A stretch of DNA of 64,000 nucleotides from Eubacteriales bacterium (GCA_045541555.1 JAZQJH010000002.1:13616-77615), one strand, 5' to 3'. Counted from the stretch's first letter, positions 48,894 to 53,664 are shown. Translations and numbers: made by a program. Notes: generated from the sequence alone by a model not told the origin.

Positions 48894-49112
48894 ATGGCTA
48901 TTACATATAACAAACTTTGGAAACTAATGATTGACAAAGGAATCAATAAAACTCAACTTCGCACAAAGGCTGGCATTAGCACTAATGCCATGGCGAAACT
49001 TGGTAAAAACGAAAGTGTAACAACCGATGTTTTAGTAAAGATTTGTACGGCCCTACAATGTGATATTGGCGATATTATGGAAATTGTACCAACGTCTAAT
49101 AACCAACAATAA
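48894..49112 (+). CDS. XRE-family HTH protein, controller (C-protein)-like, first gene of the cargo operon
   Basis: 72 aa (KGINKTQLRTKAGISTNAMAKLGKNESVTTDVLVKICTALQCDIGDIMEIV). It lies 46 nt upstream of the RM gene. An inverted repeat tctcaa...ttgaga sits in its promoter region. Confidence 0.75.
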   Translation: MAITYNKLWKLMIDKGINKTQLRTKAGISTNAMAKLGKNESVTTDVLVKICTALQCDIGDIMEIVPTSNNQQ

Positions 49113-49158
49113 ACACATTATATATGCGAATTTCCGTGTTACATAAAGGAGAATAAAA

Positions 49159-51654
49159 ATGGCATACGAATCTAAATCGTTTAAAGAACATCATCTTACA
49201 AGACTTCCTGTTTTGCAAAATCTTCTCGACCTCGGATGGGATAGAGGTCAAATTGTATGTCCTTCGCCTGATTCTGATGATACCGAATGGCATGTGCCTA
49301 AAACCCCTTCAGAAGCAACCAATCGTGAGGCAAAAAGAAGTTTTAAGGGTTTTCCTGTTGATATTGCAATTTTTGACGACGTTGAGTTTGTTAATGATTA
49401 CGAACATATAGTTGCAATAGTGGAGTGTAAAGAACCTAATAAAACCGAAGGTATCAGCCAATTAAAAATATATTTGGGATTAGAGCCGCATGTTCGTTTA
49501 GGAATTTGGACAAATGGAACCGAATTTGTTCGAGTATATAAACTACCATCAGCAGGCAGCTTTAAGGTAGTTGAAAACGCAGTCCTTCCCAAGCCAAATG
49601 AAAACTTAATTCTTGCTGACAATAAAAGTCTAACTTATTCAGACTTACATATCCCCACTACAAAAGAATTAAAAGTGGCTTTCTCCGCTTTGCTTGGAGT
49701 TGTGACTTCTCGTGATACTCGTTCTACTCGTCGAGAAGATCAATTAAATCAAATGTCGAATCTTTTGCTTATCAAGTTGGATTCCGATCACGATGGAATG
49801 TGGGATAAAAAGGATCCTCTGCTGTTTCAGTTAAGTGATTCTCCCGCCCAAACACACAAAAGAATCAACGAGGCATTTGCAAATTATAAAATTAAACACC
49901 CAGTTTTATTTGCAACCGATGAACCAGATACTATTGTTCTTGATTCAGATACTGTTCAAGAAATTGTACTTAGACTTCAGTCAATGAATATTGGTGAAAT
50001 GGCACCTACTGCACTTTCGATGGCATTCCAAGTGTTTAGAGATGCTACTTTGAAGTTAGGTGATGGTCAATACTACACTCCTCTTCGTGTTATTGAAGCA
50101 GGAACAGAATTAATGTGCATAACCCATAAGGATGTTGTGATCGATCCTGCTTGCGGTACTGGTGGCTTTTTATCTTCAGCCTTAATGAAGATTGTGGATA
50201 CCGGAATTAGCGAAAAAGCGGTTACTCAATGGGCGCATTATAATCTGTTTGGTGTCGATAGAGATAGAACTAACATCAAGCTAACTCGTGCTTTGATGGT
50301 TGGTATTGGTGATGGTTCTACAAATGCTCATCACGGAGACTCCCTTCGTGAAACCAAATGGAAAGGCGACACTAAAGGTATACAGTCTGTTCTGGGTGAT
50401 GGTCGATATACTGTCGTGTTAACAAATCCACCTTTCGGCAAAGATCTTGTCATAAATGCAGCTGATGCGAAAAGTTCACACCTTCAAATTTGTAAACACA
50501 CAAAAGGCGGTCAAGAATCTGATACTTATGCTCCAACCACTGAATTAGGAATTGCCTTTGTTGAACGAGCATGGAAAATACTCCAAAATGGTGGTCGATT
50601 AGGCATTGTACTTCCAGAAACATATTTTTTCTCAAAGTCGTATCATTGGTTTAGAGAGTGGATGGATAAGCACTTTATTTTGCGTGCAGCATTAAATGTT
50701 CCAATGGAGGCTTTCCAAGGCTTTTGTCGTGCAAAAACAAACTTCTATGTTTTTGAAAAAATAGGTGAAGGACGCAAAGCCGCAACGCCGAATTGGTTTA
50801 GAGATGGTTATGTTTGGGTTTCTAATGCTCCAACAATTGGTCTCAACAAAGATGGTTTGGACTTGTTTGTTGTTGATGCTAACGGCAAAAGAACTGATAC
50901 GATCGATGATAAAGCTATCATCGATGTCAGAGCAATGCTGAGTGGAGAGAGTACGGCAACATCAGGATATATCAAGTATGAGGACATGGCGAAATCTTAT
51001 GTTGCTGTTCCTACTTTTTCCGGGAATAAATCCGAGTCTGTTCTAGAAGCGAAAGTTTCCGAAAAATTACCTGGTTTTACAATGTGTACTTTAGGTAAAT
51101 TGATAGATGATGGGATTATTTCTGTACGAGGTGGTCACGGAAGTCCTTCTGCCGATGTCCGTACCGGAGATATTCCGTATATCAAGGTTGTTGACTTGCG
51201 TGCAGGTCGAGTAAATCCGAACAGCACAAACATGGTGCCGGAAACAGTAGCAAAACAGTTTTGGAATGGTGATGATAGTGGTATAAATGCATGGGAAATT
51301 GCCACACCTTCAAGAGCTTCAAAAAACATTGGAGAGCCATGTATGATTTTGCCTGGGCAAGAGAAAATGGTTCTCACAAAAGAAATACTGTTATTTTCTG
51401 TCGCTCCAGATGCACCAATAGACCCGTTTTATCTGTTTTGGGCGATGAGATTGCGTGATGTTCAAAGTCAATGGCAAAGGGTAATATTCATGCAAACGAA
51501 CCGTGAAGATTTAGGTGATCGCTATCGTCTAATTGAAATCCCTTATACAACTGACAAAAAAGCAGCTGAAAAAGTATCCGCAGGATACCGTGCTTATTTT
51601 AAGGGGCTTCATGAACTGCAACAAAAATTTGAAAGTATGAATAATGATTTATAA
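49159..51654 (+). CDS. Type IIG-like restriction-modification fusion: N-terminal PD-(D/E)xK (HsdR_N-like) nuclease, gamma-class N6-adenine methyltransferase, C-terminal HsdS-like TRD
   Basis: The nuclease-like motif is FPVDIAIFDD...IVAIVECKEP...QLKIYL...GIWTNGTEF. MTase motif I is VIDPACGTGGFL and motif IV is LTNPPFG. The C-terminal ~300 aa resemble a single target-recognition domain. Confidence 0.75.
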   Translation: MAYESKSFKEHHLTRLPVLQNLLDLGWDRGQIVCPSPDSDDTEWHVPKTPSEATNREAKRSFKGFPVDIAIFDDVEFVNDYEHIVAIVECKEPNKTEGISQLKIYLGLEPHVRLGIWTNGTEFVRVYKLPSAGSFKVVENAVLPKPNENLILADNKSLTYSDLHIPTTKELKVAFSALLGVVTSRDTRSTRREDQLNQMSNLLLIKLDSDHDGMWDKKDPLLFQLSDSPAQTHKRINEAFANYKIKHPVLFATDEPDTIVLDSDTVQEIVLRLQSMNIGEMAPTALSMAFQVFRDATLKLGDGQYYTPLRVIEAGTELMCITHKDVVIDPACGTGGFLSSALMKIVDTGISEKAVTQWAHYNLFGVDRDRTNIKLTRALMVGIGDGSTNAHHGDSLRETKWKGDTKGIQSVLGDGRYTVVLTNPPFGKDLVINAADAKSSHLQICKHTKGGQESDTYAPTTELGIAFVERAWKILQNGGRLGIVLPETYFFSKSYHWFREWMDKHFILRAALNVPMEAFQGFCRAKTNFYVFEKIGEGRKAATPNWFRDGYVWVSNAPTIGLNKDGLDLFVVDANGKRTDTIDDKAIIDVRAMLSGESTATSGYIKYEDMAKSYVAVPTFSGNKSESVLEAKVSEKLPGFTMCTLGKLIDDGIISVRGGHGSPSADVRTGDIPYIKVVDLRAGRVNPNSTNMVPETVAKQFWNGDDSGINAWEIATPSRASKNIGEPCMILPGQEKMVLTKEILLFSVAPDAPIDPFYLFWAMRLRDVQSQWQRVIFMQTNREDLGDRYRLIEIPYTTDKKAAEKVSAGYRAYFKGLHELQQKFESMNNDL

Positions 51655-51668
51655 AGGTGGTGAAAAGT

Positions 51669-52487: not shown

Positions 52488-53613
52488 AAAGATTATTGTT
52501 TTCTACGGATCAAAGAAAGACTTTGAGCAATTAGTATCAGAAGAAACTTCAGATGACCAAATCACTATTCCGTTTATGGAATTAATTCAACATTATAATG
52601 CTCGACTTCGTCCTAATGAGTCAGGGGTACGAGAGTCTGCATTGGCGCAAAATATCGGTGTTGACAACTGTATAGTTAGAGCTGACGACTATGGCTCAGT
52701 ATTAGAACACGTCCTTTCTAACTTCGTTACGATAGTTACATTGAATCATGATATTGGCACACTATTTGTTCATAATCCGCCAAGAAAAGTTCGTGATTCG
52801 CTACGCTCTGGATGCGGAGATGAAATAGAGTATCGATTCTCTGAGTATCCGGCTCTTTCAAGAACAAAATTGAAAGATGTTTATAGTAATGTTAATTTCG
52901 ACATACTTGGTCAATCGTCCTGCAAAAAACAAATTATTAGCGGAATGTATCGACTAATAACCAAATCAAGCAACAAACCCGTTGTATTGATGTTATATGG
53001 TCCTTCTGGCGTTGGTAAAACAGAAAGTGCCAAGAGTATAAGCAAGACAATGGGCGGTGAATTATTGAGGGTTCAATTTTCCATGATGCAAACCAACGAA
53101 GCGTATAACTACGTTTTTGGCGCAGAGCATTCAAAAAGCAGTTTTGCTCGTGACATGATGGCAAGGGAATCAAACGTTATTCTTATAGATGAGTTTGATA
53201 AAGTAAATCCTGCTTTTTATAATGCTTTTTATGAACTTTTTGATGAGGGTCGCTATGTTGACACTAACTATGATGTCGATTTAGGACAAGCCATATTCTT
53301 GTTGACTTGTAATTTTGGTAGCGTAGATGAGATTAAAAGTGTATTGGGACCAGCTATGTTCTCCCGAATTGGATGCTGCATTGAGTATGAAGAGTTAACT
53401 ACTGAGCAAAAACAGGTTATTGTTCGTAATTGGTATGATACGGTATTGAGTTCCCTAAAAGAAGATGAGAAAGATGTAATTGCTGGCACCGATATTTTAC
53501 AGTGGTTCACAAAGAACGCAGAGAGATATGATAATATTCGTATATTAAAAACCAAATTGGAAAATGCGATATTTGATAAATTGGCTGAAGCGTTTATTAT
53601 ATCTGATTCGTAA
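52480..53613 (+). CDS. ClpB-D2-like AAA+ ATPase with a novel ~170-aa N-terminal domain (possibly DolB-like)
   Basis: The start overlaps the upstream stop by 8 nt. It aligns by eye with D2 of the ClpB in this window: GPSGVGKTESAK vs [12 protein letters not shown]; VILIDEFDKVNPAFYNAFYELFDEGRYVD vs [29 protein letters not shown]; IFLLTCNFGS vs [10 protein letters not shown]; MFSRIGCCIEYEELT vs [15 protein letters not shown]. Confidence 0.75.
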   Translation: MTEKIIVFYGSKKDFEQLVSEETSDDQITIPFMELIQHYNARLRPNESGVRESALAQNIGVDNCIVRADDYGSVLEHVLSNFVTIVTLNHDIGTLFVHNPPRKVRDSLRSGCGDEIEYRFSEYPALSRTKLKDVYSNVNFDILGQSSCKKQIISGMYRLITKSSNKPVVLMLYGPSGVGKTESAKSISKTMGGELLRVQFSMMQTNEAYNYVFGAEHSKSSFARDMMARESNVILIDEFDKVNPAFYNAFYELFDEGRYVDTNYDVDLGQAIFLLTCNFGSVDEIKSVLGPAMFSRIGCCIEYEELTTEQKQVIVRNWYDTVLSSLKEDEKDVIAGTDILQWFTKNAERYDNIRILKTKLENAIFDKLAEAFIISDS

Positions 53614-53623
53614 TTTAAGATAG

Positions 53624-53664
53624 TTAGAGGTGTTGAGTTGATCAATGCCTCTAATTATTTTTTG
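53624..53664 (+). terminator. Intrinsic terminator closing the cargo operon
   Basis: ttagagg-(17 nt)-cctctaa followed by ttatttttt. Confidence 0.6.

Follow-up and report, generated by a model that had tools for sequence, protein, structure and literature searches.

A Type IIG-like restriction-modification fusion and a Dodola pair in one predicted defence operon on a small mobile element

Dodola consists of two genes that, in members other than the one described here, are protective on their own after transfer, according to PMC11514479 (citing Millman 2022) and bioRxiv 10.1101/2024.10.22.618286. Restriction-modification (RM) systems have been seen colocalised with Dodola outside defence islands (10.1101/2023.08.12.553040), and the embedding of defence genes in RM or BREX operons has been described as a general phenomenon (Payne et al., 10.1101/2024.01.29.577857). 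Analysing a window of 64,000 nucleotides, i.e. the whole stretch of Eubacteriales DNA under study, we found the genes of an HTH_26 regulator, an RM fusion, DolA (DUF6414) and DolB (AAA+), in this order, co-directional (+) and tightly packed. Read from the sequence, they appear to constitute a terminator-bounded four-gene operon on a small mobile element, with a predicted anti-phage role. The features are these:

47757-57267, no strand, carrier mobile element of ~9.5 kb that adjoins tRNA-Pro (terminal repeats and Pfam)
47757-47778 and 57246-57267, 22-nt terminal inverted repeats of the carrier
47890-48186, DUF6809 gene of the carrier
48377-48760, TnpV gene of the carrier
48767-48795, + strand, hairpin with T-run (TTTTTT) to 48800, intrinsic terminator of the upstream DUF6809/TnpV genes (fold -19.8 kcal/mol, z = -5.5, matched by 0/200 shuffles)
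48822-48847, + strand, candidate operator, 6-bp inverted repeat TCTCAA-N14-TTGAGA overlapping the -35 hexamer (repeat search)
48842-48870, + strand, sigma-70-like promoter TTGAGA-17-TAGAAT, 10/12 match, 24 nt 5' of the XRE ATG (pattern scan)
48894-49112, + strand, operon leader, 72-aa HTH_26 (Cro/C1-type; XRE) regulator (Pfam HTH_26 4e-21)
49159-51654, + strand, 831-aa single-chain RM enzyme, predicted Type IIG-like (Pfam N6_Mtase 1.2e-23, Eco57I 7.7e-10, weak HSDR_N_2; PADLOC)
51669-52487, + strand, dolA (DUF6414), Dodola component A, 272 aa (Pfam PF19952 3.9e-44, residues 4-268; PADLOC DolA 1.8e-82, 3-258 of 258 model positions)
52480-53613, + strand, dolB, ClpB-like AAA+ ATPase, Dodola component B, 377 aa (PADLOC DolB 6e-130, 2-372 of 375 model positions; Pfam AAA_2 4.6e-14)
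53617-53661, + strand, hairpin with T-run to 53664, intrinsic terminator at the operon end (fold -23.8 kcal/mol, z = -7.3, matched by 0/200 shuffles)
54338-55234, ParB-like gene of the carrier
55472-57166, large serine recombinase of the carrier (Resolvase/Recombinase/Zn_ribbon_recom/DUF4368 domains, Pfam)

G+C falls to 0.37-0.41 over 48-54 kb, and the carrier also holds a structured non-coding stretch. Two strong terminator hairpins enclose the promoter-like site and the four genes. A simple pattern scan missed both hairpins and its overall counts equalled chance, so their support comes from the folding z-scores and not from the scan; the terminator after dolB is kept in L001 and L011 as well. 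The gap between the RM fusion and dolA measures 14 nt and contains only a Shine-Dalgarno sequence, AGGTGGTG. Folding of this junction revealed no stable structure (z = +1.3 against shuffled sequence), and dolA and dolB overlap by 8 nt (ATGACTGA). Co-transcription of all four genes is most likely on this layout. The first-pass annotation had proposed a single operon between terminators, free of a hairpin between the RM stop and the dolA start, and had named an XRE-type HTH gene, a Type IIG-like nuclease-MTase-TRD fusion and a Dodola pair; folding z-scores and gene packing located the operon elements where it had placed them, the junction agreed, and Pfam and PADLOC returned the same gene identities.

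The RM fusion carries an N-terminal PD-ExK nuclease (PD...ExK motif at P66-D68 and E89-x-K91), a gamma-class N6-adenine methyltransferase (MTase) with motifs I (DPACGTGGF) and IV (NPPFG) both intact, and a C-terminal specificity-like domain. D68/E89/K91, DPACGTGGF and NPPFG are invariant across 19 homologues of 48-88% identity. In the AF2 model (pLDDT 83) the C-terminal 600-831 region folds confidently, and the best fold matches are BsaXI (1e-20), matched over its nuclease-MTase subunit, and the Type IIG enzyme BpuSI (3.5e-19), matched at full length over 938 alignment columns. The gene stands between housekeeping genes and without a partner gene in L007-L010, and reading of DNA by the C-terminal domain is putative. 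Taken with the model, the motifs indicate that a nuclease with an intact PD-(D/E)xK motif and an MTase are joined in one polypeptide, for which cleavage and methylation are predicted. DolB has a Walker A (GPSGVGKT) and a Walker B (ILIDEFD) motif, and no recognisable fold was found for DolA.

To characterize the link between the two modules, we compared the neighbourhoods of their relatives. Relatives of the RM fusion (53-88% identity) mostly lack DolAB, those at 84-87% almost always, and they often lack the HTH gene. Asked whether orthologues of the fusion recur beside the 272-aa/AAA+ pair, 36 metagenome loci with relatives at 78-88% identity gave the pair in 2 and lacked it in 34. One relative at 53% identity stands alone between ispF and cysS, another at 78% adjoins EcoRII-C on a mobilisable element lacking DolAB, and elsewhere relatives head small defence islands with ApaLI-RM/IrrE-PIN, T5orf172/Macro or Ymh modules. 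The only loci to contain both the fusion and DolAB are the near-identical copies L001-L004/L107 and one further lineage, L108, at ~76% nucleotide identity; since the block is present in this second lineage, the pairing has persisted for some time. Outside these loci the two modules assort independently, which speaks against the earlier proposal of a fixed operonic fusion. Likewise, a functionally integrated three-component system specific to this RM finds no backing, RM relatives being mostly without DolAB and DolAB relatives without this RM, and neither does the suggested BREX- or DISARM-like integration, no conserved gene set being inherited together over distant genomes.

DolAB relatives at 79-96% identity lie behind other RMs, behind other defence genes, or alone. 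A 96% identical DolA, carried on the same TnpV backbone, follows a different cluster with an 863-aa MTase, and further relatives follow N6-MTase + PstI-like (89%), D12-MTase + AlwI (86%), Vsr + 2 C5-MTases + HpaII (82%), PIN7 (79%), and Gabija after a clean RM deletion (86%); one at 80% stands alone beside IS200. Relatives also follow BREX genes, and close ones RloAB, Fic or Cap15. DNA homology between contexts extends from the start of dolA (51669/51670) to the stop codon of dolB. No conserved promoter from further 5' therefore moves with the genes, and DolAB behaves, as judged from these borders, as a promoterless cassette. In the RM-deleted derivative L148, the HTH_26 promoter region is fused 5' of dolAB.

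HTH_26 homologues head RM-DolAB operons in L011, L012, L027, L108 and L147, and XREs that are 90-93% identical precede unrelated RMs, an AlwI-type RM as well as the IIG-like fusion. We therefore rejected the HTH protein as cognate controller of the RM fusion: near-identical copies stand before unrelated RMs, and most RM orthologues lack a homologue, just 5 of the 36 loci with close RM-fusion relatives having one. The two genes do not co-vary as a C-protein gene and its RM system would. The TCTCAA-N14-TTGAGA repeat is kept in the 96%-identical copy L001, with other palindromes in its place in L011, L012 and L108.

A scan with one genome per species covered 80 loci with DolA at 31-84% identity. 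Its counts are lower bounds with uncertain denominators (crude ORF calling; Pfam summaries that give the top 25 families), and on this reading a co-directional restriction-type gene occupies position -1 in about 16/75 species-level DolAB loci. Co-directional genes assigned there are Eco47II three times, DpnII, PstI, HsdS and N6_N4 MTase twice each, HaeIII, AlwI, a C5 MTase, an Eco57I-type enzyme, and GmrSD or BrxL. Altogether dolAB lies directly 3' of at least 14 unrelated RM systems at DolA identities of 34-96%. Gaps to dolA lie between -70 and 88 nt in 14 of the 16 assigned restriction-type loci (5-88 nt in 13), and when a simple hairpin scan was applied, weak terminator-like hits came up in only two of the 16 (L027, L096). 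At the downstream +1/+2 positions there were only NgoPII (twice) and one MTase, and a rough Fisher test of upstream versus downstream restriction genes gave p = 0.002. Of the top 25 families listed for 140 random flank ORFs, none was an RM family represented at least twice. The majority of Dodola loci have no RM at -1, and many are solitary or beside other systems; a near-exclusive, PrrC-like association with RM operons was accordingly rejected. Species-level loci are partly non-independent because of horizontal transfer. Of the refuting outcome named by the first-pass annotation, an unconserved neighbourhood with random neighbours, only half was seen: the neighbourhood of the pair is not conserved with this particular RM, and its neighbours are not random, the pair being strongly and directionally enriched behind RM operons generally. 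Directional, tight placement behind at least 14 unrelated RMs exceeds plain defence-island proximity, and a functional dependency could lie behind it.

We consider it likely that a serine-recombinase element here carries a modular defence cargo operon, co-transcribed and two-layered, made of two autonomous immune modules and no three-component machine. This accords with one of the two alternatives raised earlier, a composite defence island in miniature. One promoter before the HTH_26 regulator, which may act as a repressor, would most likely yield a single mRNA for both modules. As a first layer, the Type IIG-like enzyme would methylate host DNA and cut unmodified incoming DNA; Dodola, i.e. 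DolA with the AAA+ ATPase DolB, would act as the second. On the elements of this gut-Firmicutes group the dolAB cassette, running from its ribosome-binding site to the dolB stop and lacking a promoter of its own, recurs at the 3' end of whichever RM operon fills the slot, and between a conserved HTH_26 leader and dolAB the RM modules are exchanged or lost. What ties the modules together would be a common transcript, a common means of transfer and defence layers that complement each other, and not a physical three-component machine.

Other readings of the same data have to be weighed against the two-layer operon. The 831-aa protein might only methylate adenine, as an orphan or regulatory enzyme whose N-terminal domain is vestigial, leaving an operon of HTH, MTase and Dodola: relatives bear only the names HsdM-family or N-6 DNA methylase at NCBI, the HSDR_N_2 match is below the Pfam cut-off, the orphan MTase CamA is among the fold matches, and the C-terminal domain is unusually conserved across the 19 homologues for a specificity domain. 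We regard this as quite improbable, given that the PD...ExK triad stays invariant down to 48% identity, that the fold matches extend to full-length BpuSI and to the nuclease-MTase subunit of BsaXI, and that the fusion travels as mobile cargo amid other defence genes. It is also very doubtful that the four genes do not form one functional transcript, with a promoter inside the 3' end of the RM gene driving dolAB, perhaps once part of the transcription has stopped at 51574-51588, and the operon look resulting from tight packing. The pattern scan did report a weak, terminator-like 6-bp hairpin at 51574-51588 within the RM 3' end and promoter-like sites at 51318-51347 and 51987-52015, and the RM-dolA gap widens to 260-270 nt in L027 and L099; however, such sites occur at chance frequency (28 found, 25.5 expected), the junction is no stabler than shuffled sequence, its 14 nt offer a Shine-Dalgarno only, the homology between contexts starts too late to include a promoter that travels with the cassette, and L148 retains the HTH_26 promoter region ahead of dolAB.

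The remaining reading concerns function rather than layout. By analogy with PrrC and EcoprrI, Dodola might back up or guard restriction generically, being selected for its place behind RM genes and triggered when restriction is inhibited, e.g. by DNA-mimic anti-restriction proteins, or by RM-made DNA ends. The directional position of dolAB after 14 or more different RM systems, enriched over flanks and downstream positions, is what such coupling would produce, the colocalisation was noted independently (10.1101/2023.08.12.553040), and PrrC and embedded ABC-ATPase defences provide precedent (10.1101/2024.01.29.577857). We nevertheless hold coupling to be unlikely: most Dodola loci lack an RM at -1, close relatives stand alone or behind PIN7, Gabija, RloAB, Fic or Cap15, and RM-linked and stand-alone DolA and DolB are equal in length and architecture, with no adaptor domain. 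Direct RM-Dodola binding is implausible because the partner RMs have no protein in common, and the two-gene unit protects after transfer in the accounts of it in PMC11514479 and 10.1101/2024.10.22.618286. There is a small chance, then, that Dodola is an RM-associated second line whose activity or safe expression depends on a generic aspect of restriction. Candidates for it are anti-restriction proteins, DNA ends made by the RM, and the delayed-expression logic by which RM operons work. If true, such a dependency would account for the capture of promoterless dolAB, in one orientation, as the 3' tail of at least 14 unrelated RM operons, as well as for the exchange of RMs between the conserved HTH_26 leader and dolAB.

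The outcome for the two-layer operon is mostly clarifying, in that the operon in the window combines two systems of known kinds and is no new integrated machine. The recurrence of dolAB as a promoterless tail of varied restriction operons on small gut-Firmicutes elements provides a testable lead on the Dodola mechanism and raises the question whether Dodola simply hitch-hikes as a second layer or reacts to how restriction turns out, including its failure. Furthermore, the cargo slot HTH_26 - variable RM - dolAB, with RMs swapped or deleted, helps in annotating defence islands and, for gut Clostridia, in predicting methylomes and susceptibility to phages.

Compared by Pfam only, the carrier presumably resembles Tn4451/Tn4453-type clostridial elements (TnpV and a large serine recombinase with DUF4368). 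It shares with them TnpV, the recombinase domains, terminal inverted repeats and a cargo slot, but its cargo is a defence operon where theirs is a resistance gene, and it has in addition a ParB-like gene and the structured non-coding stretch. As in C-protein-controlled RM operons, a small HTH gene lies directly 5' in the same operon, and a 6-bp inverted repeat, a candidate operator, lies over the promoter; however, the regulator is of the HTH_26 and not the classical HTH_3 type, and control is predicted at most. With the single-chain Type IIG/IIB enzymes (BpuSI, the BsaXI RM subunit, MmeI-like) the fusion has in common the order nuclease, gamma N6-adenine MTase (NPPF), putative C-terminal DNA-recognition domain, and its occurrence without a partner gene, whereas sequence similarity to the solved enzymes is limited to the MTase core and the family is uniform in length (~831 aa) with a highly conserved C-terminal domain.

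The pair itself matches Dodola (Millman et al. 2022, as cited in PMC11514479) in full-length PADLOC hits, adjacent overlapping genes and protein sizes (272 and 377 aa); unlike the Dodola systems described so far, taken to be stand-alone two-gene units, it has no promoter of its own and makes up the distal half of an RM operon that a mobile element carries. As with PrrC in the EcoprrI Type Ic hsd operon and the defence genes embedded in RM, BREX and Hachiman operons (10.1101/2024.01.29.577857), a second module is transcriptionally nested and inherited with the RM. PrrC is found embedded almost exclusively in Type I RM, which masks it physically, whereas Dodola lies at the operon 3' end and not inside, associates with many types of RM, has no RM beside it in most cases and acts alone.

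Analysis of the window's ORF list revealed four co-directional ORFs within 48.7-53.7 kb, which lie between two terminators and follow a promoter-like site.

Operon features (window coordinates, strand, description)
48767-48795 plus T-run: upstream bounding terminator; folding -19.8 kcal/mol, z = -5.5
48842-48870: promoter-like site TTGAGA-17-TAGAAT, 10/12 match
48894-49112, co-directional: XRE, 72 aa; Pfam HTH_26 4e-21
49159-51654, co-directional: RM fusion, 831 aa; Pfam N6_Mtase and Eco57I, weak HSDR_N_2
51669-52487, co-directional: dolA, 272 aa; full-length PADLOC DolA 1.8e-82, DUF6414 3.9e-44
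52480-53613, co-directional: dolB, 377 aa; full-length PADLOC DolB 6e-130, AAA_2
53617-53661 plus T-run: downstream bounding terminator; folding -23.8 kcal/mol, z = -7.3

The RM stop codon is separated from the dolA ATG by 14 nt carrying the Shine-Dalgarno sequence AGGTGGTG, dolA and dolB overlap by 8 nt, and folding of the RM/dolA junction detected no structure (z = +1.3). By their full-length PADLOC matches, the last two genes form a Dodola system. Given that a generic promoter and hairpin scan yielded overall counts at chance level, we relied on position and on folding z-scores for the operon signals; the generic scan also returned a weak hairpin inside the operon at 51574-51588 and internal promoter-like sites at chance level. 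The ORFs and both terminators thus bear out the terminator-flanked four-gene operon of the first-pass annotation, and judging from the sequence the four genes are most likely carried on a single transcript.

Alignment of 19 homologues of the RM fusion (48-88% identity) showed that the PD...ExK triad (D68, E89, K91), motif I (DPACGTGGF) and motif IV (NPPFG) are invariant. The AF2 model of the protein (pLDDT 83) matched best the fold of the BsaXI nuclease-MTase subunit (1e-20) and, over its full length, that of the Type IIG enzyme BpuSI (3.5e-19), a kinship visible only by fold search because sequence matches in the PDB are confined to the MTase core. The motifs together with these fold matches indicate a Type IIG-like enzyme, its activity being predicted. 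Close relatives are abundant and uniform in length (~831 aa). The presumed specificity domain, residues 600-831 (window 50956-51654), is unusually conserved in homologues down to 48% identity, with motifs including GHGSPSxD, PYIKVxDLR, TPSRASKNIGEP and FMQTNREDLGDR; this conservation suggests that the family shares one recognition site or that the domain has a function different from that of a variable TRD.

The first-pass annotation had also proposed a fixed operonic fusion of the RM enzyme with DolAB, possibly an integrated three-component system. This did not hold: in a metagenome scan, DolAB lay downstream in only 2 of 36 loci with RM fusion relatives of 78-99% identity, namely L107, which carries a 99% copy of the RM fusion, and L108, in which RM, DolA and DolB are 88%, 88% and 85% identical to those of the window. 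An XRE homologue was found in only 5 of the 36. A relative of 53% identity is solitary between ispF and cysS on four long chromosomal contigs, and one of 78% identity resides on a mobilisable element, adjoining an EcoRII-C gene. On these neighbourhoods, the RM fusion is not a fixed partner of DolAB. Relatives of 84-87% identity also head other small islands (L118 4682-10997, L111 5001-11510 and L115 197-5506). One such island reads XRE, RM fusion, ApaLI REase, N6_N4 MTase, IrrE/HTH and DUF4411(PIN), a second RM fusion, T5orf172, a 618-aa protein without known function and a Macro-domain protein, and a third RM fusion, a 314-aa protein without known function and Hypoth_Ymh.

Exploring the pair from the other side, we scanned one genome per species with the DolA family alignment and obtained 80 loci (DolA 31-84% identity), whose neighbouring ORFs were called crudely and subjected to a Pfam scan, the summaries showing the 25 most frequent families. 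Pfam scans replaced a screen for the MTase motif [DNS]PP[YFWH], which was too crude and missed C5 MTases and REases. A co-directional gene occupies position -1, directly upstream of dolA, in 58 loci. These genes include REases (three Eco47II, two DpnII, two PstI-like, HaeIII and AlwI), two HsdS, two N6_N4 MTases, a C5 MTase and an Eco57I-type 913-aa enzyme, GmrSD and BREX BrxL, as well as RloB, Fic, Cap15, YhcG, SNF2, an S8 peptidase and an integrase; one gene further upstream, at -2, C5, N6 and N4 MTases and HTH_26 are frequent. Overall, a restriction-type gene lies directly upstream of dolA in about 16 of 75 species-scan loci. This gene is spaced -70 to 88 nt from dolA in 14 of the 16 and 5-88 nt in 13, and a simple hairpin scan gave weak terminator-like matches for only two of them (L027 and L096). 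Downstream of dolB, the 93 genes at +1 and +2 contained only two NgoPII among the families listed and one MTase by motif, and for 140 ORFs drawn at random from beyond 2.5 kb in these loci, the 25 families listed included no RM family with more than one member. A rough Fisher test of upstream against downstream positions gave p = 0.002; horizontal transfer lowers the independence between species. At least 14 RM types are joined to dolAB, close relatives of the window DolA included, and this diversity, rather than DolA phylogeny, is our argument for repeated, independent joining. The first-pass annotation had set against its own proposal a pair found among random neighbours; DolAB is indeed not tied to the RM fusion, but its neighbours are not random.

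Close relatives of the window DolA occur in the following contexts.

Contexts of dolAB (DolA identity, genes upstream of dolA)
96%, same DUF6809/TnpV backbone: HTH_26 and a different RM cluster (863-aa MTase fusion and three genes)
89%: HTH_26, N6 MTase and PstI-like REase
86%: HTH_26, double D12 MTase and AlwI REase; followed by Shedu
86%: Gabija and truncated HTH_26
82%: Vsr, two C5 MTases and HpaII REase
80%, Clostridium symbiosum: solitary, adjoining IS200
79%, L023 6087-14819: PIN7-domain gene ending 6 nt before dolA

DNA homology between contexts extends from the dolA ribosome-binding site/start codon (51669/51670) to the dolB stop, and in these close relatives dolAB behaves as a cassette without a promoter of its own. 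Comparison by blastn of the L148 type with L012 showed that the D12 MTase and AlwI REase (L012 3067-6864) are cleanly deleted in the former, which fuses the leader promoter upstream of dolAB. Loci of this type (L148-L151, e.g. L148 2537-8939) carry Gabija (GajA OLD/TOPRIM and GajB UvrD), a truncated 54-aa HTH_26 and dolAB. L023 is another compact island, with a different partner upstream of Dodola; downstream of its dolB lie an Eco57I-type MTase (Type IIG), a 1116-aa ResIII helicase protein and an Mrr-like nuclease. No copy of the operon turned up in searches of plasmid and phage collections. Plasmids of Bacillus, Enterococcus and Lactobacillus carry distant Dodola genes only; MTases lie close to some of these, but directly upstream of none. 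The AF2 model of DolA was of moderate quality, with moderate to high confidence outside residues 40-77; these residues (window 51786-51899) are Gly/Ser/Ala-rich and predicted disordered (pLDDT below 50). As no PDB fold matched significantly (best E = 0.54), this moderate model gave no clue to the mechanism of DolA.

The operon lies within a low-G+C segment, on an element that further carries DUF6809, TnpV, a ParB-like gene and a large serine recombinase with DUF4368 (Pfam) and is delimited as follows.

47757-47778 and 57246-57267: 22-nt terminal inverted repeats, adjoining tRNA-Pro and partial tRNA copies

The block 48662-53724, comprising a TnpV 3' remnant, the upstream terminator, the promoter, the four genes and the downstream terminator, was found again at 96% nucleotide identity on metagenome contigs L001-L003 with a different upstream backbone; as the block spans both terminators, the promoter and all four genes, the operon travels as one piece. 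Element ends and att-like repeats lie at 45812-45868, 47734-47778, 57246-57302 and 57399-57503, the tRNA-Pro 3' end is present in three partial copies, and a MATE transporter gene (46076-47470) lies between the two copies of a perfect 57-nt direct repeat (45812 and 57399). Taken together, these features point to insertions at tRNA-Pro that are nested or in tandem. Downstream of the operon, 53698-54010 holds a strong promoter-like site (TTGACA-18-TATACT, 11/12) followed by ~270 highly structured nt (MFE -98.2 kcal/mol, z = -6.5) that close with a long hairpin (53912-53991) and a T-run. In L011, a related element, this stretch is conserved at 96%. It may encode an ncRNA of the element or serve as a leader for the ParB-like gene that follows; Rfam gave no match in it or in the operon, the sole match being tRNA-Pro.

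Backbone and DolAB of L011 are 79-99% identical to those of the window and its XRE only 64%, a divergence from which the XRE could be taken for a cognate C-protein co-varying with RM. This was ruled out because XREs 90-93% identical precede unrelated RMs, both AlwI-type (L012, L027) and the IIG-like fusion (L108, L118, L121). The HTH_26 gene is rather a putative generic leader/regulator module of the cargo slot. Candidate operators vary among the loci: TCTCAA-N14-TTGAGA spans the -35 in the window, and a CAGCGAAAGCTG-like palindrome follows the -10 in L012 and L108; we infer regulation by the HTH_26 protein.

The reading best supported is that transcription starts at one promoter, probably under autoregulation by the HTH_26 protein, and yields a single mRNA encoding two autonomous layers, the single-chain RM enzyme first and Dodola second. 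Dodola in the window's lineage would rely on the upstream operon for transcription, RM modules would be swapped or lost between conserved HTH_26 and dolAB flanks, and the RM-Dodola linkage would amount to shared expression and shared mobility. The directional RM-dolAB pattern would also fit a model in which Dodola is functionally coupled to restriction, as PrrC is. We consider such coupling unlikely, however: RM at -1 is absent from most Dodola loci, the architecture of DolAB is identical in RM-linked and solitary forms, the partner RMs have no protein in common, and Dodola is active alone, its two genes protecting on their own after transfer (PMC11514479, citing Millman 2022; 10.1101/2024.10.22.618286). 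The other first-pass suggestion, a miniature composite defence island, is supported. Published work is in line with the reading of two autonomous layers: outside defence islands, RM systems colocalise preferentially with Dodola (10.1101/2023.08.12.553040), and it is a general finding that RM and BREX operons have defence genes embedded in them (10.1101/2024.01.29.577857). That dolAB forms the promoterless tail of many RM operons has in part been anticipated in the literature, and the window operon combines systems of known kinds in a new way.
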